From IMG/VR virus record IMGVR_UViG_2802429245_000013: a DNA stretch of 45,041 bases. The stretch is one strand, 5' to 3'. The first letter of the stretch is position 1. Every line of letters starts with the position of its first letter. The notes below the pieces were generated by a model. The model searched no databases. It saw only the letters and a list, made by a program, of their open reading frames with translations, and was not told the origin of the DNA. Shown piece after piece: positions 17,687 through 44,307 of the stretch. Position numbers and translations under genes: made by a program. The DNA is from a virus (lineage: Duplodnaviria > Heunggongvirae > Uroviricota > Caudoviricetes).

Positions 17687-18500
17687 GTTTGCCCTTCTCC
17701 GTTAAAAATTCGTCGGGTAGTTTCTGAGGGGCGTAGATCGGCAGAGCATCGCAACTGCAATAAACCTCCTCCCCGGCAGCAGTGATTTCGTCATAAAAAC
17801 CATATACGGGCTTAATAAGCCCCTGCTCCAGCGCCCACGAATCGCGGAGGAGATAAATTTTCTCGTCGCGCTCTTTGTGGTCCTGTCGGTATTTGTAGCC
17901 CGGACGCCGCCAGTTAGAATGCCAGCGCAGAGCAATCGCACCACTCTGAACAGCCAGCAGATACTTAACGTTGCTCGCCAGCTTATGTCCCTGGTCAATT
18001 GCCACCCGGCGACTGATAAAATCCATATCCTTCACGGACTTCTGAAAACCGGACTTCACTTCCCGGCGATCAATTTCGCTCACCCCGTCAGGCGGAATGG
18101 ACGTAACCCATCCCTGAAAACGCTGTATAGTTTTCTCGATAGCCTGTTCGCGGTTGAGTTTTATCAGGTTGGCACTGGCGAAAATTCGCCTGTCGAGTTC
18201 CTTGCGAAACTCAGGTTTCAGTTTTTCAACAGTGATTTTTTTAGGGCCGTCAGGAGGCTGATCCCGTAATGCCCCGCCGTCGATGACAAGACGGCTGTAG
18301 ATAGCGGTGAGGTGTTTTCTGGCTACGGTATCATCAGGGGTTTCTCGCTGAGCGGCTACACGGAGTTTCCGGCACCATTCGAGCAATGATTTTTCGCTAT
18401 CCCACCCGTGATTTACGTAGTAGTTAACGGCATCCGTCAGAACCTCATATAGCGTCCTGATCCGTTTCTTCTTCCTCACCGCCCGGCTGGAAATTGCCAT
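17667..18500 (-). CDS. Head morphogenesis protein (Mu F / SPP1 gp7-like), about 277 aa
   Basis: ORF 17667..18638 trimmed to ATG at 18500 with RBS AGGAG 7 nt upstream; follows portal gene. Confidence 0.45.
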   Translation of the reverse strand: MAISSRAVRKKKRIRTLYEVLTDAVNYYVNHGWDSEKSLLEWCRKLRVAAQRETPDDTVARKHLTAIYSRLVIDGGALRDQPPDGPKKITVEKLKPEFRKELDRRIFASANLIKLNREQAIEKTIQRFQGWVTSIPPDGVSEIDRREVKSGFQKSVKDMDFISRRVAIDQGHKLASNVKYLLAVQSGAIALRWHSNWRRPGYKYRQDHKERDEKIYLLRDSWALEQGLIKPVYGFYDEITAAGEEVYCSCDALPIYAPQKLPDEFLTEKGKREFNRA

Positions 18501-19881
18501 CAGGCGTCTCCTGCTTCGGTGGTTCATAATTCGCCAGCGCGTCCACATCAATGATGAGTGGAGCTTCGCCATAGGTTTGCGTGGCATTAACAAGGCTTGC
18601 CAGCCATTCAGTGACGGCGGCACGGTTTTCAGGATCAACCTGTGGCGACACGGCAGAGAAAAGTGCTATCGCCTGTTGAATCACTTTACTGTCGCTTTCC
18701 CGGCGTTTGTCCGGCGACTCCTCCACCAGCTCCTGCCATGTCGCGGTAAATTCACGTCGCCACTGGTAAAACGTGGTTTTATAGTCATCAGTTATGATGT
18801 CCGGGTAATCATTTTTCAGCGACTGATAAAATTCCTCGTTCCAGGCGATGTACTGCACCAGGCGTTCGAAATAATCCATCACGGGTTCAATCTGCTGGCG
18901 TACACCATCGATATACTGGCTGATGGCTTTCGAATCTTCGGTCCCCTCACCGAAACCATTCGAAAAGGCTTCCTCTTTGATGAGGATCGCCGGAACGTCA
19001 CTCCCTGACGCAATATCGGAAATAATATTGTCGCGTGCAGCGTTTAGCGCACCATCGATGTTTTGTAGATTTAGCGAGGTAACGTCCTCATCCTTCCCGA
19101 TACTAAGCACACCTTTATTTTTTGCCTCTTTGACGTTTTCCCTTTTTCGTCCCGTGGCGGCAGCCATGAGCCCGTCAAGTTTCGAACCGTACTGCACAAC
19201 TTTAGCTACCAGTACGCCCGCCTTCTGGCTGACGAGATCATTCGCCTCCATCGTGTTGATATAGGATTTCAGGGAATAAAGAACGCGCTGAAACACACTT
19301 CGTCCGGTGAATCCGAACGATGAACTCTGAAACTCCAGATAAATCGGTGTGCCGTTGAAGATTTTCAGTGTGCGTGACGGATGCCAGTCTTTTCCGCCAA
19401 TCTTCAGTTTTTTATTGGCTTCCTGGAAAAACGGGCTGTTGGGGTTCTGGTCAGTCACCATCGAACCGGAAGCGTTCAACGGGTCCCACGCGTTGATATA
19501 CACGTCATCTTCTGTCAGTCCGAACGTCGGAAGCGGTTCACGACATGAAACACTGTCGGTGCCCACGCCGATCGCTGCGGCACCGTAGCAACGAGACAGA
19601 AAAAACAGATTTTTAATCTTCTCGTTAACCTTCATACGTTCCCATACCTCCTGGAAACGCCGCACAACCCGCTCGTCAGGGTCTGTCTCCACGTTGTACT
19701 GGCGCGGCTTACACATCGCCATAAGTATGGGTTTTTCGACAAGTTTCCCGCCCAGCGGGTGGTACTGCCACAGCAGTTTACACAGTTCATAGCCAATGTC
19801 GGTTCCCGGCTGAATTTCTTCAGCCTCAAGAATGCGCATCAACGAAGAACTGAGATTTACAGAAATCTCGATCTCAGCCAT
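18445..19881 (-). CDS. Portal protein, 478 aa
   Basis: ORF track; size and position directly after terminase large subunit; acidic C-terminus. Confidence 0.6.
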   Translation of the reverse strand: MAEIEISVNLSSSLMRILEAEEIQPGTDIGYELCKLLWQYHPLGGKLVEKPILMAMCKPRQYNVETDPDERVVRRFQEVWERMKVNEKIKNLFFLSRCYGAAAIGVGTDSVSCREPLPTFGLTEDDVYINAWDPLNASGSMVTDQNPNSPFFQEANKKLKIGGKDWHPSRTLKIFNGTPIYLEFQSSSFGFTGRSVFQRVLYSLKSYINTMEANDLVSQKAGVLVAKVVQYGSKLDGLMAAATGRKRENVKEAKNKGVLSIGKDEDVTSLNLQNIDGALNAARDNIISDIASGSDVPAILIKEEAFSNGFGEGTEDSKAISQYIDGVRQQIEPVMDYFERLVQYIAWNEEFYQSLKNDYPDIITDDYKTTFYQWRREFTATWQELVEESPDKRRESDSKVIQQAIALFSAVSPQVDPENRAAVTEWLASLVNATQTYGEAPLIIDVDALANYEPPKQETPDGNFQPGGEEEETDQDAI

Positions 19882-19900: not shown

Positions 19901-21229
19901 TTACAATTCCGCGTAATTACCGTGCGCGATGATCAATCCATAGGTGTAACAATCGAAAAGGTCATCAGCACGTTTATGCGCATCTTTGTCTGCCAGGTGG
20001 AACCCGGCGATTTGTTTTATGAGGTGGTTTGCGGTGGTGCGTTTGAATGAAACGGTCTTGTCGTAAGCCTCCCGGACGATTTTGCACATCCCCTGATAGT
20101 GGTAGCTGGATGCCATCACCGCCCGTTCGTCTTTGCCCTTGCTGGTTAGTGCCGATTTAATCGGCGTCATATCCCAGCCTTCGGTTTCCGCCTTCTGGTT
20201 GAGGATTGCCCCCATCGCGGCGTCTTCCATAAAAATACCCTGGCTGCCCAGACGCGGACGGCATAATTTCGCGAGGCGCTCGAGGTTGTCATAAACGCCG
20301 GGGATATACTCAGGAAGCAATGACGCTTTAATTTGCGTCACATCCCAGTCAATAATCGTCAGTTTTGGATCGTCCGAATACGTTGACTCATAAGAGAAAT
20401 ACACCACGCCAGTACCATCATTTTCGGTCCCGCCTTTCAGCGCCGTATCCATCACTGCGAAAATCATGTCGCAGTACGGCGGCATCTCAATTGGTTGACC
20501 GTCCACCAGCAGCTTATCGACATCGAGTAACGCGTCTTTGGACCAGTCTACGAACTCTGCAAGATATTCCTGCTGCCAGACGCGCGGATCGGATTTCTTC
20601 TCCGTTTCCTCCAGTTCTTCTTTCGGAATATACGGATTCGATGAAGTTGGCGCATGGTGCATAACAAATCCCAGGGATTCATCGTGGCATATCGCGTAGA
20701 AAAAATTGCTCTCGTCGATACCGTTTGGTGTGGAAAATACCCACGCACAGCCGCGGTAATCGACAAGCGTCGGGCGTATCGCTCGGGGCCAGATTTCCTC
20801 GAGCATTTCCGGCGATTTAGTGAATGCGGCCTCATCAATCAGCACAGCGTGATATTTACGCCCACGCCCGGCCAGTTTGTTATTGTCCGTTACCCAAAAG
20901 TCGATGCGCCCCCCATTACGGAGAATGATGCGCTTTTCATTTTTTGACTGACTGAGGATCAGCGGTTGCAGAACGGCGCTAATTTCATCCCAGATTTCCT
21001 GGTACTGGCGGTATTGCGCGGTAAAAATCCCCACCCTACCCGCGATAAGTTGCCCGGTGGTAGGAACGGCAAATTTCCGCGTAGCGAAACTGGTAGCGAT
21101 GTTCACCAGCATCACCGTTTTACCCCAGCGACGACCACAGCATACCGCGTGGAAGCGTTCCTCTATTGCCGCCGTCCATGCAGCTATTTGCCCCTCATGA
21201 GGTTTTGGGAGGTAGATTTCAATCGACAT
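19901..21229 (-). CDS. Terminase large subunit, 442 aa
   Basis: Walker A-like CCGRRWGKT and Walker B-like VLIDEAA motifs in ORF translation; followed by portal. Confidence 0.75.
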   Translation of the reverse strand: MSIEIYLPKPHEGQIAAWTAAIEERFHAVCCGRRWGKTVMLVNIATSFATRKFAVPTTGQLIAGRVGIFTAQYRQYQEIWDEISAVLQPLILSQSKNEKRIILRNGGRIDFWVTDNNKLAGRGRKYHAVLIDEAAFTKSPEMLEEIWPRAIRPTLVDYRGCAWVFSTPNGIDESNFFYAICHDESLGFVMHHAPTSSNPYIPKEELEETEKKSDPRVWQQEYLAEFVDWSKDALLDVDKLLVDGQPIEMPPYCDMIFAVMDTALKGGTENDGTGVVYFSYESTYSDDPKLTIIDWDVTQIKASLLPEYIPGVYDNLERLAKLCRPRLGSQGIFMEDAAMGAILNQKAETEGWDMTPIKSALTSKGKDERAVMASSYHYQGMCKIVREAYDKTVSFKRTTANHLIKQIAGFHLADKDAHKRADDLFDCYTYGLIIAHGNYAEL

Positions 21230-22310
21230 TATCCACTCCCGGCATCGGCAGAGAGTTGTGGATAATTATTTCGTTATTCTCACCACCCACGCCTTTTTTG
21301 AGGTTTTCAATCTCAGTGCGCAGCTTTTCGTTGCGAAGCCTCAGTCCTTCAAGCTCCAGATCATTGCGACTGTCAGTTGCACCACCAGCAGAACTTCCTT
21401 TCGTCGCCATTATCAGCTTGATAAGTTCACGCCGGGCGGCAGCCTTATCCTCCAGCAGGATCTCAACACCAAATTTCCCGAGCTTTGCCCCTGCATATAA
21501 TTGCCGCGCATCCCCATCAAGCAGAGTGGTATCAGCCATATAAAGCTGCCCCGTTCCCTCACCGCAGCACTTCGGGCAGTCCGGATTGGGTATGGCGTTA
21601 TCAACAAAGCCGAGGCCTCCATATTCCGGCTCGGGTTTGCCATCTCTGGAGGCCTGTGCCGCTGCCTTATCGAATTCTGCAATATCACGCCACTGGTAGA
21701 GATGATTCTCGCCCCAGCAATAACGGCAGTTAACACGGCGAAATTGTGCCAACTGATTGGGGTCGGCCTGGACAATGGCCATCAACTGACTCACCAGTAA
21801 ATCCAGGTCTGCGGTATAGCGTTTCTGGTACTGATTGCGGAAGTAGCTGATAGCGCGAAAAACCTTAGGATTTCTTAGGAGCTGGCTGGCGGTTACGTAG
21901 GCCGCATTCCCCTCTGACTCGTATCCTGCCAGGCGATATGCCTCAACGAGTTTTTTCCCCTGGGCAACCAGCATTGCGAATTTCGCCTGCTGGTCTGAAA
22001 TACCGAATTCATCGGGACAGAATGAAATTTCCTCCGCGTCGCCCTCATTCAGGCACGCATCGGATACTGACTTTTTTTTCTGAGATTTTCCGTTCCGCTT
22101 TTGCGCAGTCTGCGCAAATTTTTTCTGCGCACTTTTTTGCGCAGTTTTGCGCACTTCTGTCTGCGCATTTTTCGGAGGTTTTTTGATGTAACGACGGGCT
22201 GTTGCGTAATTCAGTCCCCTTGCTTCACACCATGCCACCGGAGATATACCGGAGCGGGTGTATTCAGCAATATACTCCTGCTGCAACGCCCCCCAGTCCG
22301 GTCTGCTCAT
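21219..22310 (-). CDS. Terminase small subunit-like DNA-binding protein (N-terminal HTH, Cys4 motif), 363 aa
   Basis: ORF track; N-terminus ISPVAWCEARGLNYATARRYIKK is HTH-like; CxxC...CxxCC cluster; start overlaps terminase large subunit region by 11 nt. Confidence 0.45.
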   Translation of the reverse strand: MSRPDWGALQQEYIAEYTRSGISPVAWCEARGLNYATARRYIKKPPKNAQTEVRKTAQKSAQKKFAQTAQKRNGKSQKKKSVSDACLNEGDAEEISFCPDEFGISDQQAKFAMLVAQGKKLVEAYRLAGYESEGNAAYVTASQLLRNPKVFRAISYFRNQYQKRYTADLDLLVSQLMAIVQADPNQLAQFRRVNCRYCWGENHLYQWRDIAEFDKAAAQASRDGKPEPEYGGLGFVDNAIPNPDCPKCCGEGTGQLYMADTTLLDGDARQLYAGAKLGKFGVEILLEDKAAARRELIKLIMATKGSSAGGATDSRNDLELEGLRLRNEKLRTEIENLKKGVGGENNEIIIHNSLPMPGVDNVD

Positions 22311-22313
22311 CAG

Positions 22314-22523
22314 TTAGTCCTGATTTTTATCCACCCTGAGTAGTTCGCGCAGGGCAAAGGCATCCCCTTTTCTGGCAAGCTTAAACAATGCCGCCCGTAG
22401 CTCGGCTTCACCTTTCGCTCTGCCCTTACGGATGGACGCATAAAAATTTGTCATTGCTTCCCGATTTTCTTTCAGTCGGTTCAGATCAACATCCAGAACG
22501 TCAGCTATTTGTTGTGCAGTCAT
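22314..22523 (-). CDS. Hypothetical small protein, about 69 aa
   Basis: ORF track 22314..22565 trimmed to internal Met; start uncertain. Confidence 0.3.
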   Translation of the reverse strand: MTAQQIADVLDVDLNRLKENREAMTNFYASIRKGRAKGEAELRAALFKLARKGDAFALRELLRVDKNQD

Positions 22524-23433
22524 CCGGCACGCTGCCAGAGACTCGACTTTCGAATACGGAATCATTTGTCACCCCCATTGATATGCAGGGTGTCTTCTTC
22601 CTGTATTTTTCGTGAAGGATTTTTACTGCAGCGTTGTTCCAGGTGACCTGATGGTGAATGCGTTTATGGCTGGCACCCATCAGTGAGATTTTTACGCACG
22701 ACGGCGCATACATGACGGAGTAAAAACTTTTAACGTAGGTTCCGGAATCCAGATACAGCTCGGTCATTCCGCCGCTGTTTTTCTGCGTCTGTTTCTGCCC
22801 TAACTGGACAGCACCGATCGTCATAAACAATTCACCACGGCGACCGAGATTCGTGTACGTATTCACATCCTCGTTAATGCGCCCCATGAATGAGAACGGT
22901 CGCTCGACCGAACAGATAAAGCTGTTCATTGCCTTGCGTTTCACCCATGAAGCATGGCCGCCATTGTCACCAAGAAAATCCCCGCCCTGCGACATAGCGA
23001 TGGAAAGAGCAGGTATTGATTCGTAATACGCCAGCATTTCAGAAAGGATCGCATCCAGTTTCCTTATCGGAAAATAGGCCTGGTCATAGTTGCGATCCAC
23101 CCGAAACTGAAACTCGTGATAATCATCATCGAGCTGAATGAAGTATTTACACCCGACCTTTTTTGCCAGGTCAAAACTGGCATTACGGGCGTAAAAAATT
23201 GAGCGACGATCACCGAAATTATCGGCTTCGTCAAAACGACTGGCGATATCGGCTTTGGAAAACACCAGCACCTGTTCACCAAATTCTGCTATGTACTGAT
23301 GCCGGGTTTTATCTTCATCATCAACGACGATAAAAATTTTCCCGGTATAGCCAGCACGACGCAAAGTCCGGTAAGTCAGAACTTTGTCCGGTCGCCCGTG
23401 AGTCAGAATAAAGGCGCAAAAATCATCACGCAT
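22501..23433 (-). CDS. Unknown enzyme-like protein, about 310 aa, possible GT-A-fold DxD-type transferase
   Basis: ORF 22501..23451 trimmed to ATG at 23433 with RBS GGGAGG; strand-DxD-like YFIQLDDDYHEF and N-terminal CAFILTHGRP...KIFIVVDDED suggest a Rossmann-like nucleotide-dependent transferase; start overlaps ParB-like stop by 8 nt. Confidence 0.35.
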   Translation of the reverse strand: MRDDFCAFILTHGRPDKVLTYRTLRRAGYTGKIFIVVDDEDKTRHQYIAEFGEQVLVFSKADIASRFDEADNFGDRRSIFYARNASFDLAKKVGCKYFIQLDDDYHEFQFRVDRNYDQAYFPIRKLDAILSEMLAYYESIPALSIAMSQGGDFLGDNGGHASWVKRKAMNSFICSVERPFSFMGRINEDVNTYTNLGRRGELFMTIGAVQLGQKQTQKNSGGMTELYLDSGTYVKSFYSVMYAPSCVKISLMGASHKRIHHQVTWNNAAVKILHEKYRKKTPCISMGVTNDSVFESRVSGSVPDDCTTNS

Positions 23434-24214
23434 ATTCCTCCTCCCCGCCATGCATGATCTCCACCATGCACTGCGTCATCCGGACAAAACCATTTTCGAT
23501 GGCTTGCTGATAATCAATGATCACCAGCGCCGACTCTTCGAAAAGCGCCTGAACTTCAGCGGGCGCATGGGCGTAATAGTCCGCAATTCTGCTGAAATTA
23601 AACACTGTGTGGCGTTCTGCCGCACACAGGAGGAATTTTTCGATATCAGGATCAAGGGACGCCGAACGTATCCGGCTGACCAGCTCCTGAGTTTTCGTAT
23701 CGTCGTACAGTTCGCCGATATCCGGTTTATCGCCTGACGGCTCATAAACAGGTGTATCAATTTTCGTCGTGTACTGCTCCTCCTCATTTCCGGTACCTGG
23801 CAAAACATCCGTCAACAGTTCATCAATTTCTGTTGGGCTGAATCCTGTCAGGGAGATATCAAAATCAGCATTGATTAGCTCCGACAGTTCCACCCGTAAC
23901 AGTTCTTCATCCCAGCCAGCGTTGAGCGGCAGGCGATTATCTGCCAGGCGGTACGCCTTTTTCTGATCATCCGTCAGGCCAGACAGAACAATGACCGGAA
24001 CCGAATCCATTTTGAGCATTTCAGCCGCCATCACGCGACCGTGACCAGCAATAATTTCGCCCTTTTCGTCAATCAGCACCGGATTGGTCCAGCCGAATTG
24101 CTTAATGCTTTCTACCAGTTGTGCCACCTGCTCAGGGCTGTGTGTCCTGGCGTTGTGCGCATACGGAGACAGTTTTTGCAACGGGCGATAGACGATCTTT
24201 AATTTCTCGCTCAT
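23426..24214 (-). CDS. ParB N-terminal domain (ParB/sulfiredoxin-like) protein, 262 aa
   Basis: ORF translation has ParB-N hallmark ...NPVLIDEKGEIIAGHGRVMAA... near N-terminus. Confidence 0.6.
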   Translation of the reverse strand: MSEKLKIVYRPLQKLSPYAHNARTHSPEQVAQLVESIKQFGWTNPVLIDEKGEIIAGHGRVMAAEMLKMDSVPVIVLSGLTDDQKKAYRLADNRLPLNAGWDEELLRVELSELINADFDISLTGFSPTEIDELLTDVLPGTGNEEEQYTTKIDTPVYEPSGDKPDIGELYDDTKTQELVSRIRSASLDPDIEKFLLCAAERHTVFNFSRIADYYAHAPAEVQALFEESALVIIDYQQAIENGFVRMTQCMVEIMHGGEEEYA

Positions 24215-24553: not shown

Positions 24554-24736
24554 TCAGTTCTGCATACACTGCCGGACACCGTCGACAATTTCACAGACCT
24601 GAGAAGCTGTATCGAAAAGCTGGCGCGCCTTATCCAGGCTGACGCATCCCACCAATAAAAAAGGCACCAGTATCGCTACCAGTGCCCATTTCGCTGCCGT
24701 TCGCGGCATTCTGTGTGTCCAGTGTTTTCGACTCAT
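24554..24736 (-). CDS. Lysis-associated lipoprotein (lipobox LLVGC), about 60 aa; o-spanin-like position
   Basis: ORF 24554..24808 trimmed to Met after endolysin stop: MSRKHWTHRMPRTAAKWALVAILVPFLLVGCVSL... Confidence 0.4.
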   Translation of the reverse strand: MSRKHWTHRMPRTAAKWALVAILVPFLLVGCVSLDKARQLFDTASQVCEIVDGVRQCMQN

Positions 24737-24750
24737 AACTCGCCCGGCTA

Positions 24751-25128
24751 TCAGCGTTTCAATTGGAAGTGCGGCCCGTCCTTCAGCGTTTTCCAGTCCC
24801 CGCCCCATTCGATGGCGACTCCCAGCTCTGCGGCAGCCTGCTTAAATGCCTGTGCGATTTTCTCGTACAGAGGCCAGTCCCATGACACCTGGCTGCCAAC
24901 ATAAGCCACAACATCCACAGCATCACCGGTCAGGTGGCGGCTGTTCATGGTCTGGCTTTTCCCTTCCGCGACCAGCTGTTTCTGGCGTTCTTTCGTGCGC
25001 AGCCCTTCCGTAATACCGAAATCAACCTCCGTCAATTCCAGCGCACGGCGAACGACAGCAACCAGCTGTGGTTTGACGCCCTCCAGATTTTTTTCACTGC
25101 GACGACTGAATCTGAATTTACCCGACAT
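24751..25128 (-). CDS. Endolysin, L-alanyl-D-glutamate peptidase (peptidase M15 / VanY-like)
   Basis: Motifs ...SRHLTGDAVDVVAYVG...W...DGPHFQL typical of M15 phage endopeptidases; ATG at 25128 with RBS GGAGG 5 nt upstream (ORF-track first codon is GTG). Confidence 0.75.
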   Translation of the reverse strand: MSGKFRFSRRSEKNLEGVKPQLVAVVRRALELTEVDFGITEGLRTKERQKQLVAEGKSQTMNSRHLTGDAVDVVAYVGSQVSWDWPLYEKIAQAFKQAAAELGVAIEWGGDWKTLKDGPHFQLKR

Positions 25129-25130
25129 GC

Positions 25131-25406
25131 TCACCTCCGGAATGAAAGGATTTTTGAAACGTTCCCGCGTGCACGTATCACCAGCACGCAGAACAGCAGA
25201 TTAAGCCCCACCGCCAGCCAGTTCGCCGCTAACGGGCGACCGCACAGATAGCTGAGGGGTGCAAAGGCATACAGCAGCATCAGCAGCCAGGCCAGCCATG
25301 ACATCAGCGGTTTGTGTCTGGAATCACGGCGACGATAAAAAAAGAGCGTCAGCACGATAACCGTGCATAACGCCACATTCAGCAATCCGGAAAGGTTACT
25401 TAACAT
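25131..25406 (-). CDS. Small membrane protein (holin/antiholin-like), about 91 aa
   Basis: ORF 25131..25460 trimmed to Met with RBS GGAGG; two to three hydrophobic segments; stop overlaps endolysin start. Confidence 0.45.
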   Translation of the reverse strand: MLSNLSGLLNVALCTVIVLTLFFYRRRDSRHKPLMSWLAWLLMLLYAFAPLSYLCGRPLAANWLAVGLNLLFCVLVIRARGNVSKILSFRR

Positions 25407-25788
25407 TGCCGCCTCCTCCGCCCCGCAGGCGGGAGAACAGGCCGGACACCAGCGATGCAATATCCTGCTGGTGGATGAACGAGAGAATCTTCACCGACAC
25501 CACTGACACCAGTACTGCACACAATGCGTCGACAGGCGCGCTGTCAAATCCTGTGTGCTTTACCAGCCAGGCAGCCAGAACCTCTGCGCCCAGCACGCCA
25601 ATAATGAACGACACCAGAAAATGCGCCGCCACACGCCAGGCTGAAAGCGCCTGCGGCATCGTTGCCACAAATAACGCCCCGGCGAACGCACCAAACACAA
25701 TCCCGAAATCCGTTCCGGTAAACAGCCCGTACACCGTCGCCCCACCGAGCGCCGCAGCCGTGCCGGAACCGGATAAGGGTTCAGACAT
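25396..25788 (-). CDS. Holin-like multi-TM protein, about 131 aa
   Basis: ORF 25396..25860 trimmed to Met with RBS AGGAG; Gly/Ala-rich transmembrane segments; first gene of lysis cassette. Confidence 0.5.
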   Translation of the reverse strand: MSEPLSGSGTAAALGGATVYGLFTGTDFGIVFGAFAGALFVATMPQALSAWRVAAHFLVSFIIGVLGAEVLAAWLVKHTGFDSAPVDALCAVLVSVVSVKILSFIHQQDIASLVSGLFSRLRGGGGGNVK

Positions 25789-25802
25789 ACTTTTTTCTCC
25801 TG

Positions 25803-25829
25803 TAAATAAAAAAGGGCCACCAGCGGCCC
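25803..25829 (-). terminator. Hairpin plus U-tract immediately upstream of holin RBS (minus strand)
   Basis: Stem GGGCC/GGCCC with 6-nt loop; on minus strand followed by TTTTTTATTT. Confidence 0.45.
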
Positions 25830-26107
25830 GTAAAAAACACCCCGTCAAAAGCACCGGCATCCGCAGATGCCCTTTGCGTGGCGTTATTTGATGCGCGCCA
25901 GATGTGGCGCAAAGAAATGAAATAAGACTTATCGGAAATTAAGGTTAATTTGAGGATTTAAACCACTTCTGAAGCTTAGTAGTATGAACATGTCCCCGGA
26001 AGGGGGCCAATACTTATTATTCTTCATGGACTTTGTCCCGCGGTCTTAATCCGACGACCGCGCTACTTTTCACCCTCTCGCAAATTGCTATCCAAAGGAC
26101 GTTGTCC

Positions 26108-26546: not shown

Positions 26547-26621
<75 letters not shown>

Positions 26622-26624
26622 ATA

Positions 26625-26700
<76 letters not shown>

Positions 26701-42983: not shown

Positions 42984-43265
42984 ATGAATCTTGTGACACT
43001 CAAAACGTGGGGAAAACTCAGATATCCGGATAACCCACCATCAATATCAACGCTGAGACGATGGGCAAGGAATGGAAACATTTATCCTGCACCTGAACTA
43101 CACGGGAGGAGTTACAGGGTGGTTCCGGAGGCTTTCTATATCAACCCAAATAAGGTTGATACCGATATAACACACCATCAACCTAATGGGCGACAAGGGA
43201 GAGACAGTCCGTTACTGGAGAAGTTAAAACATGCAGCGGAAAAAATACGATCCCAATTTGCCTAA
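42984..43265 (+). CDS. xis: Excisionase (Xis), about 93 aa
   Basis: ORF 42909..43265 trimmed to Met with RBS AAGAGG; ...TLKTWGKLRYPDNPPSISTLRRWARNGNIYPAPEL... resembles lambda Xis; overlaps int start by 35 nt. Confidence 0.6.
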   Translation: MNLVTLKTWGKLRYPDNPPSISTLRRWARNGNIYPAPELHGRSYRVVPEAFYINPNKVDTDITHHQPNGRQGRDSPLLEKLKHAAEKIRSQFA

Positions 43266-44307
43266 AAACTTAACATATCGAAGGAGGGACAAAGCATATT
43301 ACTGGCGCAACCCTCTGACGAAAGAAGAATTTACACTAGGTAAAATTTCAAGGAGAGATGCAGTAGCGCAGGCAATTGAAGCAAATCATTATATATACAA
43401 AAACTACTCTCCTGCAGCCTTAATTGAAAAGCTTAAAGGGTTCGACTCATTTACTATGGCAGACTGGATTGAACGTTACAAAACGATTCTTATAAGGAGA
43501 AAAGTGTCCAGAAATACTTATAAAATTCGGATAAATCAACTGGAGACAATAAAAGAAAAATTGGGAGGAATTTTACTGACAGAAATAACCACTCGCCATA
43601 TTGCCGAGTTTCTTGATTTGTGGATTGAAGGAGGGAAAAACACAATGGCAGGATCAATGCGTTCTGTGTTGTCTGATATGTTTCGCGAGGCCATTGTTGA
43701 AGGACGTATATCTCAAAATCCAGTAACGCCAACAAGAGCACCGAAAATAGTAGTTACAAGAGAACGACTGAAACTAAAGACATACAACTGCATCAGGGAG
43801 GCAGCAGATCAACTTCCGGCATGGTTCCCATTAGCTATGGATTTAGCCCTTGTAACAGGACAACGTCGCGAAGACATAACGAATATGCGGTTCAGTGATA
43901 TTTATGATGATCGTCTCCACATCAGGCAAATTAAGACAGGAATGATGATTGCTATCCCCCTGTCACTCAGCCTTCCTGTCGCTGGTCTACGGCTTGGTAC
44001 AGTAGTTGAACGGTGCCGCCTGGTAAGCCGGGGAGATTATCTAATCAGTGCCGGGATTAGAAAAAACAGCCCTGACGGCAGCATTCACCCGGATGGCCTG
44101 ACAAAAAAATTTGTCGCAGCCAGAAAATTAACAGGTATCCAGTTCAGTGAAAACCCACCAACTTTTCACGAGATCAGAAGTCTGGCTGGACGATTGTACA
44201 AAGAAACATGTGGAGAAGAATTTGCCCAGCGCCTACTTGGTCACACATCGGAGAAGACAACAAAAATGTATCTTGATGAGCGAGAAAAAACGTACTTACT
44301 GCTCTGA
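43231..44307 (+). CDS. int: Integrase, lambda-family tyrosine recombinase, 358 aa
   Basis: N-terminus aligns with lambda Int by eye ([38 protein letters not shown] versus MGRRRSHERRDLPPNLYIRNNGYYCYRDPRTGKEFGLG); C-terminal [11 protein letters not shown]...[13 protein letters not shown] catalytic region. Confidence 0.85.

Follow-up and report, generated by a model that had tools for sequence, protein, structure and literature searches.

A ParB-like protein and a GT-A glycosyltransferase encoded beside phage packaging genes form an obligate pair and a candidate DNA glycosylation module

Two overlapping minus-strand genes that lie between the lysis and terminase genes of a tailed-phage prophage raise the question of what a ParB-like protein and the enzyme encoded directly behind it do together at this position. 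The window in which they occur is the whole 45,041-nt stretch of DNA analysed (IMG/VR record IMGVR_UViG_2802429245_000013). A sequence-only reading had described a 262-aa ParB-like gene and a gene of about 310 aa joined by an 8-nt overlap and a strong ribosome-binding site (RBS). Both were present in the ORF list on the minus strand, and their coordinates, the overlap and the RBS (GGAGGAGG) were confirmed (Table 1). The ATG of the downstream gene is located at 23431-23433 and the TGA stop of the ParB-like gene at 23426-23428, so that the overlap spans 23426-23433, and a 3-nt spacer separates the RBS from the ATG by reading of the sequence. The proposed translational coupling is supported, and the RBS lies inside the 3' end of the ParB-like gene. 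The longest ORF for the downstream gene starts at 23451 and encodes 316 aa; the ATG at 23433 gives 310 aa, which is also the start used by PGAP in a 98.5%-identical genome. Because homologues of 40-60% identity span bacterial phyla and a haloarchaeal virus, both ORFs can be regarded as real genes and not chance ORFs.

Table 1. Coordinates of the gene pair, its predicted domains and motifs, and the downstream packaging genes within the window
Feature	Position	Strand	Remarks
ParB-like partner gene, 262 aa	23426-24214	-	ORF; PGAP gene name ynaK; pI 4.5, acidic
N-terminal ParB/Srx NTP-binding-type domain and helix pair, residues 1-135	23810-24214	-	pLDDT 75-92 (AF2)
Linear motif YTTKIDTPVYEP, residues 148-159 (YTxKIxxPxYEP)	23738-23773	-	Inside predicted disordered linker
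C-terminal helical domain, residues 165-255, acidic tail	23450-23722	-	Invariant partner of the glycosyltransferase
RBS GGAGGAGG of glycosyltransferase gene	23437-23444	-	Within 3' end of ParB-like gene; read from sequence
TAGT / GREB1-related GT-A glycosyltransferase, 310 aa	22501-23433	-	Basic, pI ~8.7
DDD, D102-D104, DxD metal and NDP-sugar binding motif	23122-23130	-	Invariant family-wide
N187-E188-D189-V190, second catalytic motif ('ED')	22864-22875	-	Invariant in family alignment
Conserved C-terminal region of glycosyltransferase, residues 216-280	22594-22788	-	Beyond Pfam TAGT model; pLDDT <55
Small HTH ORF, resembles small-terminase N-terminus	22314-22565	-	phrog_309, 2.5e-22; overlaps 3' end of glycosyltransferase gene
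terS, small terminase subunit	21219-22310	-	Terminase_2 and phrog_51
terL, large terminase subunit	19901-21229	-	ORF and PGAP; overlaps terS by 11 nt

The suggested slot between lysis and terminase genes was borne out by the gene order, in which holin and M15 endolysin genes (24751-25860) are followed by the pair, the small HTH ORF, terS and terL. The small HTH ORF has a maximal length of 83 aa, or of 69 aa if the start chosen by PGAP at 22523 is used, and was confined to enterobacterial loci when neighbouring genes were clustered. No convincing promoter of its own was detected for the pair (1 promoter-like site versus 2.8 expected), and expression in the lysogen is therefore unlikely for genes placed in a late operon behind the lysis genes; we infer late timing.

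The 310-aa protein, which had not been assignable to a family by eye, is a clear member of PF20691 (TAGT, TET-associated glycosyltransferase / GREB1-related), matching the Pfam profile with 123.7 bits (cutoff 27.5, E=1.3e-35) over residues 8-222. It has a GT-A fold with intact R...DDD...ED catalytic motifs, and R14, D102-104 and E188-D189 are invariant in the family alignment. The hydrophobic-strand-DDD motif noticed earlier (YFIQLDDDYHEF) is genuine and holds the invariant D102-D104. The same R...DDD...ED arrangement has been described as the active-site motif of GT-A DNA glycosyltransferases from phages and of the trypanosome enzyme JGT (Pyle et al. 2023/2024). Further invariant positions (T216, Q217, G222, T224, Y227, K235, S236, F237, Y238, R258, H260, H261, and W265) were found in the C-terminal region. 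Sequence and profile searches of the PDB returned no meaningful match, and none of the PADLOC defence-system protein models matched the enzyme. In the preferred reading, the enzyme is a basic GT-A transferase that depends on metal and takes its sugar from an NDP donor.

The ParB-like protein matched Pfam ParB_N (PF02195) with 29.1 bits (cutoff 26.3, E=1.1e-6) and phrog_620 with E=1.9e-88; against TIGR00180 it scored 37 bits, below the cutoff of 58. Conserved columns of its N-terminal domain include N21, GHGR (57-60), and D92-N93, of which N21, G57, G59, R60, D92, and N93 are invariant and H58 is present in at least 90% of sequences. The GHGR aligns with the GERR of Spo0J (phmmer, 4e-5), and the nucleotide-phosphate binding residues, i.e. 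the GxxR arginine and the box III Asn, are kept. In Foldseek comparisons the AF2 model matched Noc, ParB-CDP, PadC, KorB, and Srx, with E values of 6e-7 to 1e-5 for segregation-type folds. Residues 3-142 matched the N-terminus of ParB-methyltransferase fusions (phrog_498, 3e-52; PADLOC MTase_II, 1e-38). The linker that follows (residues 137-161) had a pLDDT below 50 in the AF2 model; within the motif that it carries, Y148, P155, and Y157 were invariant among 23 diverse partners, and this motif is kept in partners reduced to the C-terminal domain. The C-terminal domain itself is 36-54% identical from E. coli to the haloarchaeal virus, with a mean column identity of 49%, and neither a Pfam family nor a PDB relative was found for it by sequence and profile searches. 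It was also considered as a hidden oxygenase, which is unlikely for a small helical domain with only one near-invariant His and no structural or profile match. The partner is acidic and its AF2 model has no recognisable DNA-binding domain, and the median pI values of enzyme (8.85) and partner (4.63) show that the two carry complementary charges.

The pair proved to be strongly co-conserved in loci far outside this prophage, so that what the sequence-only reading had named as refuting it did not occur. Of 156 TAGT loci, drawn from bacteria, phages, and viruses of archaea, 149 have a ParB-like gene that abuts the TAGT gene on its upstream side. When loci were retrieved through the C-terminal domain of the partner, a TAGT gene was found within 1 kb in all 79 (adjacent in 76, with one inserted gene in 3), and the partner was the sole neighbour family common to all 101 diverse loci where the enzyme clustered. 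In at least nine loci, the C-terminal domain and the YTxKIxxPxYEP motif are encoded upstream of TAGT without a ParB domain. The pair is thus an obligate module, and the invariant part of the partner is the C-terminal domain together with this motif. No third recurrent gene emerged from clustering of 1874 neighbour ORFs, among which the terminase and portal families alone recur. In approximately 69 of 82 loci the module lies just 5' of a large terminase gene, and the TerL proteins concerned fall into four families; it directly follows cos in Lactobacillus phage c5, immediately precedes TerL in Nocardia phage NTR1 with no annotated terS between, and is located between DNA polymerase A and beta-clamp genes in some other phages.

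In total, 1331 clusters of the module were counted at 50% identity, with hosts among Enterobacteria, Bacteroidota, Firmicutes, Actinobacteria, and CPR bacteria as well as one haloarchaeal virus. Among 5426 complete E. coli genomes, 867 (about one in six) carry an intact copy, in Rac-like prophages. The Rac prophage of K-12 has lost it, ynaK of K-12 corresponding to no more than codons 1-86 of the ParB-like gene, and in some L. delbrueckii phages it is decayed. The module is accessory and not core. The K-12 gene ydaY was evaluated as a possible TAGT remnant and showed no homology.

The closest characterised relative by family is the beta-glucosyl-HMC-alpha-glucosyltransferase of T2/T6, a phage enzyme that adds sugar to a DNA-linked acceptor and that is included in PF20691 and shares phrog_842 with the enzyme described here. 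A tblastn search at E<=1e-5 did not recover it, and it is therefore a distant relative; in addition, its acceptor is the glucose on 5hmC from a dedicated pre-replicative pathway that this prophage does not have, and the descriptions of it that were consulted mention no ParB-like partner. The GT-A DNA glycosyltransferases of metavirome C5-MT/5mYOX clusters and JGT share the fold and R...DDD...ED, and the metavirome-cluster enzymes are sometimes encoded next to ParB and terminase genes (Pyle et al. 2023/2024). They differ in using 5hmC or 5hmU supplied by a neighbouring dioxygenase or ThyS, none of which is present here. GREB1, the animal O-GlcNAc transferase of ER-alpha, belongs to the same Pfam family, and PGAP names the E. 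coli protein 'GREB1-related'; it differs in that it acts on a protein, in a eukaryotic setting, and is not accompanied by a ParB partner.

The sequence-only reading had regarded the pair as the best candidate for an undescribed two-component system. That novelty does not hold, since enzymes of DNA modification in phages were predicted in 2013 to have ParB-like partners, and experiments in 2026 demonstrated this for thymine dioxygenases. ParB176 is required by 5mYOX176 only when the substrate is dsDNA, and both of its domains are needed (O'Toole et al. 2026). A comparison of the AF2 model with the published description of ParB176/5mYOX176 revealed the same order of nucleotide-binding domain, helix pair, disordered linker, and C-terminal domain, likewise with no DNA-binding domain (O'Toole et al. 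2026), and both proteins are adjacent cognate partners of a post-replicative DNA-modifying enzyme, the DNA modification being putative in the present case. In contrast to ParB176, the client here is a glycosyltransferase and not a dioxygenase, no adjacent 5mYOX was found, and GHGR takes the place of GERR. The N-terminal 140 residues match the ParB-DNA methyltransferase fusions of phages and prophages very strongly, whereas here the domain is encoded separately from its client, a sugar transferase, and is followed by a C-terminal domain of its own. Segregation ParB, Noc, and KorB, which are CTP-gated DNA clamps, share the N-terminal fold with its phosphate-binding Arg and Asn, but the partner is acidic, has His in place of the catalytic Glu, and carries a C-terminal domain unrelated by sequence.

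Association with TET/JBP is a context feature behind the name of the TAGT family and not a sequence criterion. Neither a TET/JBP enzyme, a ThyA-like (thymidylate-synthase-type) hydroxymethylase, nor a DNA methyltransferase was found in the complete prophage, using Pfam on 20 further ORFs and PGAP of a 98.5%-identical prophage, or in the 31.8-kb genome of phage c5, and these enzymes were not recurrent near the module in more than 100 diverse loci. Tet_JBP was also absent among the 25 families listed of the 57 matched in a Pfam scan of 122 upstream neighbours. To our knowledge, the characterised DNA-acting members of this glycosyltransferase family all need 5hmC, 5hmU, or a DNA-borne sugar, and in all enzymatic glycosylation of viral DNA known so far, a dedicated enzyme first makes the hydroxylated or hydroxymethylated pyrimidine from which it starts. 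We know of no NDP-sugar transferase that glycosylates unmodified DNA directly and of no report of glycosylated DNA in lambdoid coliphages. With no source of hydroxymethyl-pyrimidine, the sugar could only be accepted by a canonical base, by the backbone, or by the DNA ends. Glycosyltransferases without a precursor enzyme were explicitly left unexplained in published surveys, and this module belongs among them, the majority.

Action on DNA, raised earlier as a possibility, is the best-supported reading, and the pair is most likely a two-protein glycosylation module with the phage's own DNA as its target. Supporting observations are the PF20691 match with the invariant R14, D102-104, and E188-D189 as in DNA glycosyltransferases, the DNA-linked acceptors of characterised phage members of the family (the T2/T6 enzyme), a ParB domain closest to the N-terminus of ParB-DNA-methyltransferase fusions, a partner architecture like that of the ParB activators of 5mYOX dioxygenases, the position of the module beside TerL, cos, or replication genes, the obligate pairing with complementary charges, the accessory character of the module, and its diversification by the fusions and inserted enzymes described below. 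Against it stand the lack of a 5hmC- or 5hmU-making enzyme in the prophage, in phage c5, or recurrently near the module, the strongly acidic partner with no recognisable DNA-binding domain, and the glycosylation of protein by the animal family member GREB1. In the corresponding mechanism, both genes would be translated as a coupled unit heading the packaging operon, the YTxKIxxPxYEP motif and C-terminal domain would bind and activate the transferase, and the ParB domain would supply nucleotide-gated dimerisation and engagement of dsDNA, as has been demonstrated for ParB176 and its thymine dioxygenase. Replicated phage DNA would receive the sugar just before or during packaging, and the glycosylated genome, once injected, would resist nuclease-based immunity in the next host. 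We infer that partner and enzyme interact physically, that DNA accepts the sugar, and that the phage gains protection. A late glycosylation of phage DNA, assisted by the ParB-like protein and preceding packaging, is given roughly an even chance of being correct. More tentatively, and with a chance clearly below even, the module may represent a second route to glycosylated phage DNA that needs no precursor. A partner-activated GT-A transferase would in this case attach sugar to unmodified DNA, at a canonical base, in the backbone, or at the genome ends, shortly before the DNA is packaged, and would do so in thousands of temperate phages that infect bacteria or archaea, Rac-like prophages among them. 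The activator would then be the motif with the helical domain, to which a ParB nucleotide switch is usually fused.

The absence of a DNA precursor pathway also suits an enzyme that glycosylates protein, either its own partner at Tyr or Thr of YTxKIxxPxYEP or the terminase, the portal, or some other protein involved in packaging or replication. The most specific version has the disordered motif of the partner, with its invariant Y148, P155, and Y157, as acceptor; motif and C-terminal domain are the sole element that always accompanies the enzyme, and GREB1 is a precedent for protein O-GlcNAc transfer in the same Pfam family. Docking or activation accounts for the motif equally well, however, and the characterised phage PF20691 members work on DNA, the ParB domain is of the type fused to DNA methyltransferases, and the replication and packaging contexts suit DNA, which makes a protein acceptor unlikely. 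Alternatively, the classical acceptor (5hmC, 5hmU, or a glycosylated base) may have been kept and be met on DNA that is already modified, in a co-infecting hypermodified phage or at rare oxidised bases, for inter-phage competition or repair-like marking and not for self-protection. Catalytic motifs identical to those of the 5hmC/5hmU-using enzymes, in a prophage that provides no precursor-forming enzyme, are in agreement with this idea, but it is improbable, given that a late-operon position with no convincing promoter makes lysogen expression unlikely, that no PADLOC defence-system model matched, that such substrates are unexpected in a haloarchaeal virus, Lactobacillus, and Nocardia, and that strict coupling with packaging or replication genes favours action on the phage's own genome.

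Least probable is that the pair serves the packaging or partition of DNA mechanically, with the ParB-like protein as a nuclease, a pac/cos-site accessory, or a segregation factor and the association with the transferase as secondary. The conserved place directly 5' of terS/terL and next to cos, the arrangement in phage NTR1 noted above, and long-standing database annotations of the partner as 'partition protein' or 'ParB nuclease' point in that direction. Neither an HTH or parS-binding domain (AF2 model of the partner), a ParA (PGAP annotation of the prophage), nor parS-like palindromes around the pair were found, however; the ParB domain is dispensable in the at least nine loci described above, whereas the transferase is always present, and the module accompanies four unrelated TerL families as well as replication modules. 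Its absence or decay in close relatives shows that it is not a core packaging function. A search for known anti-phage defence systems with PADLOC identified none, the ParB domain alone resembling the N-terminus of MTase_II.

The module combines a transferase and a dedicated helper without a precursor enzyme and yet is among the most conserved and widespread accessory pairs of temperate phages. Identification of the acceptor would uncover either a new kind of DNA chemistry, with a bearing on how phages evade restriction and CRISPR, on sequencing artefacts, and on phage therapy, or a previously unseen class of protein glycosylation in phages. Both outcomes would extend the recent finding that ParB-fold proteins activate enzymes of DNA modification. 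An inducible prophage in E. coli makes the system directly accessible to experiment.

Variation at the module loci was also recorded. No natural ParB-TAGT fusion was found in the best 150 representatives, and an apparent 560-aa fusion (L226) was in fact a ParB domain joined to a phosphatase/cytidylyltransferase. Tandem duplications of partner-enzyme pairs occur, and fusions at module loci involve a SAM methyltransferase, a sulfotransferase, a P-loop kinase-like domain, or a second GT. Some loci contain an inserted histidine-phosphatase and cytidylyltransferase-like enzyme, presumably for donor synthesis, and the fusions and inserted enzymes are in the style of an arms-race diversification.

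The 310-aa protein was assigned to Pfam family PF20691 (TET-associated glycosyltransferase, TAGT) at 123.7 bits against a cutoff of 27.5, which overturns the sequence-only reading of it as an unassignable enzyme. It also matches phrog_842 (7e-102), and its newer PGAP name is 'GREB1-related protein'. An AlphaFold2 model (56 homologues) was confident over residues 1-215. R14, D102-D103-D104, and N187-E188-D189 are invariant in homologues down to 41% identity and correspond to R...DDD...ED, a motif reported for the GT-A DNA glycosyltransferases of phages and for trypanosome JGT. Residues 216-280, beyond the Pfam model and modelled poorly, are also conserved. The E. coli and Shigella transferases carry a C-terminal extension of ~25-30 aa, which is not present in other genera (283-297 aa).

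The window holds a Rac-like lambdoid prophage with an integrase, RecE/RecT, YdaS/YdaT, a Q-like DUF1133 protein, tRNA-Thr, and tRNA-Gly. Its late genes all lie on the minus strand, with holins and an M15 endolysin followed by packaging and morphogenesis genes. The gene pair is real and both genes are intact; the earlier description was accurate in protein lengths (262 and ~310 aa), 8-nt overlap, and ribosome-binding site, and omitted only the strand (minus). The transferase frame is open from 23451, and the ATG at 23433, which is also PGAP's choice, gives 310 aa, produces that overlap with the TGA stop of the ParB-like gene, and directly follows GGAGGAGG-AAT. The junction between the transferase gene and the small HTH ORF overlaps as well, a 3-nt gap separates this ORF from terS, and terS and terL overlap by 11 nt. 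Late antiterminated transcription presumably reads through the hairpin preceding the module. The 478-aa protein following terL was labelled 'anti-CBASS protein Acb1 family protein' by PGAP and matches a phage portal in Pfam (Phage_portal_3, 1.9e-13); the Acb1 label is likely a misleading annotation.

Features of the window prophage and of compared loci (L) and homologous proteins (P)
Feature	Coordinates	Strand	Remarks
Integrase	43231-44307		prophage landmark
tRNA-Gly(TCC), tRNA-Thr(TGT)	26547-26700	minus	between Q-like gene and holin genes
Strong terminator-like hairpin	24662-24687	minus	11-bp stem and T run; between lysis genes and small ORF upstream of ParB-like gene
ParB-like ORF	23426-24214	minus	262 aa
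Transferase	22501-23433	minus	310 aa
Transferase C-terminal extension	22501-22593		overlaps start of small HTH ORF
Small HTH ORF	22314-22565	minus	downstream of transferase; resembles small-terminase N-terminus (phrog_309)
TGCGCA-containing direct and inverted repeats	22099-22170		5' part of terS; 36-nt unit, twice; TTTGCGCAGTCTGCGCAAA; encode repetitive AQK-rich stretch; candidate pac site
terS	21219-22310	minus	downstream of small HTH ORF
terL	19901-21229	minus	downstream of terS
478-aa protein	18445-19881; L001:16132-17568	minus (window)	portal by Pfam match
Modules with C-terminal-domain-only partner	L116:2970-5117; L125:7607-8858; L142:6460-8906		partner 131-134 aa; DNA polymerase A/beta-clamp context
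Inserted bifunctional gene	L221:1419-2387; L222:2942-3895; L234:4326-5321		~320 aa; between ParB-like gene and transferase
Same type of enzyme, fused in frame to partner C-terminus	L226:3578-5260
Natural transferase fusions (P0248, P0253, P0282, P0275, P0266, P0272, P0277, P0297, P0311)			kinase-like domain N-terminal
QueD/PTPS gene	L088:9669-10768		~1.5 kb downstream of module
Radical-SAM gene	L149:8840-9799		overlaps transferase gene 3' end
Rac, E. coli K-12 MG1655	L238:1425377-1425980		module deleted beside trkG insertion

Conservation of the pair beyond this prophage was checked in both directions. Scored with our own profiles, 149 of 156 transferase loci have a ParB-like gene immediately upstream in the same orientation that overlaps or abuts the transferase gene; the 7 exceptions comprise truncated contigs, pseudogenes, L009 (where one ORF call is over-extended), and two loci showing a gap. 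The reverse search from the partner C-terminal domain recovered a transferase in 79/79 viral loci (76 adjacent, 3 with one inserted gene). The pairing is thus obligate, and clustering of 1874 neighbouring ORFs revealed no other universal family, the next commonest being small and large terminases and portals.

The partner begins with a genuine ParB/Srx domain (Pfam 29.1 bits; Foldseek matches to Noc, ParB-CDP, PadC, KorB, and sulfiredoxin), with GHGR where ParB has GERR. A helix pair, a disordered linker (137-161), and a helical, acidic-tailed C-terminal domain are predicted to follow. Residues 1-140 are closest to the N-terminus of ParB-DNA-methyltransferase fusions (phrog_498 3e-52; PADLOC MTase_II 1e-38). 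At least nine loci have an upstream gene coding only for the last 130-150 residues, which hold the linker's Y-T/S-x-K-I-x-x-P-x-Y-E-P motif and the helical domain. This segment, for which no Pfam family or PDB relative was found, shows 36-54% identity (mean per column 49%) among its E. coli, Gram-positive, Bacteroidales, and haloviral versions, with Y148, P155, Y157, F194, L195, R201, Q222, E226, and D234 invariant (window numbering). The invariant element of the pairing is therefore the motif plus C-terminal domain and not the ParB domain. We infer that this element binds and activates the transferase, the ParB domain being an added, usually kept module that would act nucleotide-dependently. 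Family-wide, median pI is 8.85 for the transferase and 4.63 for the partner (net charge ~-20). Extra copies also occur: L116 has an additional TAGT paralogue, and in L142 a C-terminal-domain-like protein and a TAGT paralogue precede the pair, making two tandem sets.

Among the members of PF20691 is the T2/T6 enzyme, which attaches a second glucose to alpha-glucosyl-5hmC. Metavirome C5-MT/5mYOX clusters encode related GT-A enzymes that act on 5hmC in DNA as glycosyltransferases; in the study of these clusters ~65% of GT contigs had no 5mYOX or ThyS neighbour, which was left unexplained. In outline, a 2013 proposal had ParB-like proteins direct modification enzymes during packaging. In 2026 one subclass of phage thymine dioxygenases was shown to be activated by cognate ParB-like proteins, which are required on dsDNA only and need both their nucleotide-binding and C-terminal domains. 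Pairs of ParB with a modification enzyme are thus of a known kind, and the suggestion of an undescribed two-component system was not borne out; our literature search found no paper on a dioxygenase-less ParB-TAGT pair.

The reading we favour, at about an even chance, is that a late, translationally coupled module carries out partner-guided glycosylation of phage DNA. The partner would activate the GT-A transferase and position it on replicated phage DNA, glycosylation would occur before or during packaging, and the virion DNA would then evade nuclease-based immunity. The analysis shows the enzyme's family, fold, and catalytic motifs, the obligate pairing, the position in the genome, and the accessory distribution; the timing, contact between the two proteins, DNA as acceptor, and the benefit are inferred. 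The main weakness of this mechanism is that we know of no acceptor on unmodified DNA. We consider it doubtful that unmodified DNA is glycosylated directly, which would be of high interest if true. Neither a TET/JBP dioxygenase, a thymidylate-synthase-type hydroxymethylase, nor a DNA methyltransferase was found in the complete window prophage or the genome of phage c5 (31.8 kb). In a set of 122 upstream neighbours, taken from ~60 diverse loci, even the most frequent families occurred only 2-4 times each (N6/N4 methylase 4, C5 methylase 2, PAPS reductase 2), and Tet_JBP was not among the families listed. With these precursor-forming enzymes not found, 'TET-associated' misdescribes this clade. 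A rival reading, action on DNA already modified from other sources, seems quite improbable.

That the acceptor is instead a protein, possibly the partner's own Tyr/Thr motif, is unlikely. A mechanical role in packaging or partition would agree with the position of many modules, which fits DNA as the target as well: the first large downstream ORF is a large terminase in ~69 of the 82 loci with enough downstream sequence, spread over four Pfam ATPase families (Terminase_6N 46, Terminase_3 17, GpA 3, TerL_ATPase 3), and phage c5, a cos phage, has the pair directly after cos as ORF1-ORF2. In another phage group (some of Bacteroidales/Clostridia type) the module is flanked by the genes for DNA polymerase A and the beta sliding clamp, no HTH domain was found in the partner and no ParA in the prophage, and we regard such a role as very improbable.

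Additions to the module resemble the glycan-tailoring and donor-supply functions seen in DNA hypermodification clusters. Fusion of some TAGT-clade members to a class I SAM methyltransferase, sulfotransferase, P-loop kinase-like domain, or second TAGT-like domain suggests tailoring of the transferred glycan. The inserted gene combines a histidine-phosphatase (His_Phos_1) with a cytidylyltransferase-like domain resembling TagD/HldE, and probably supplies a special activated donor. Because of the QueD/PTPS gene in L088 and the radical-SAM gene in L149, the module may share DNA-modification islands; the gene preceding QueD/PTPS, without a Pfam match, is suspected to be DpdA-like, and the two together hint at a 7-deazaguanine pathway.

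The distribution of the module is accessory. Of 5426 complete E. coli genomes, 1568 match its 2-kb segment, and in 867 of these the match covers at least 80% of the segment; ten induced-prophage phage records match as well. Grouped at 50% identity, the homologues from an exhaustive search form 1331 clusters at E<=1e-3 and 497 at E<=1e-30. Proteobacteria, Bacteroidota, Firmicutes, Acidobacteriota, Spirochaetes, Saccharibacteria, and an archaeal MAG carry homologues at 42-60% identity; those of Lactobacillus phages phi jlb1 and c5, Nocardia phage NTR1, Vibrio jumbo phages, and haloarchaeal virus HHTV-2 are 39-47% identical. This precursor-less, partner-dependent TAGT clade is thus far-flung across hosts and lends itself to experiments in E. 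coli. The K-12 gene ydaY was considered as a TAGT remnant and rejected as unrelated to the transferase; all that K-12 Rac retains of the ParB-like gene is its first 86 codons, as ynaK (95% identity).
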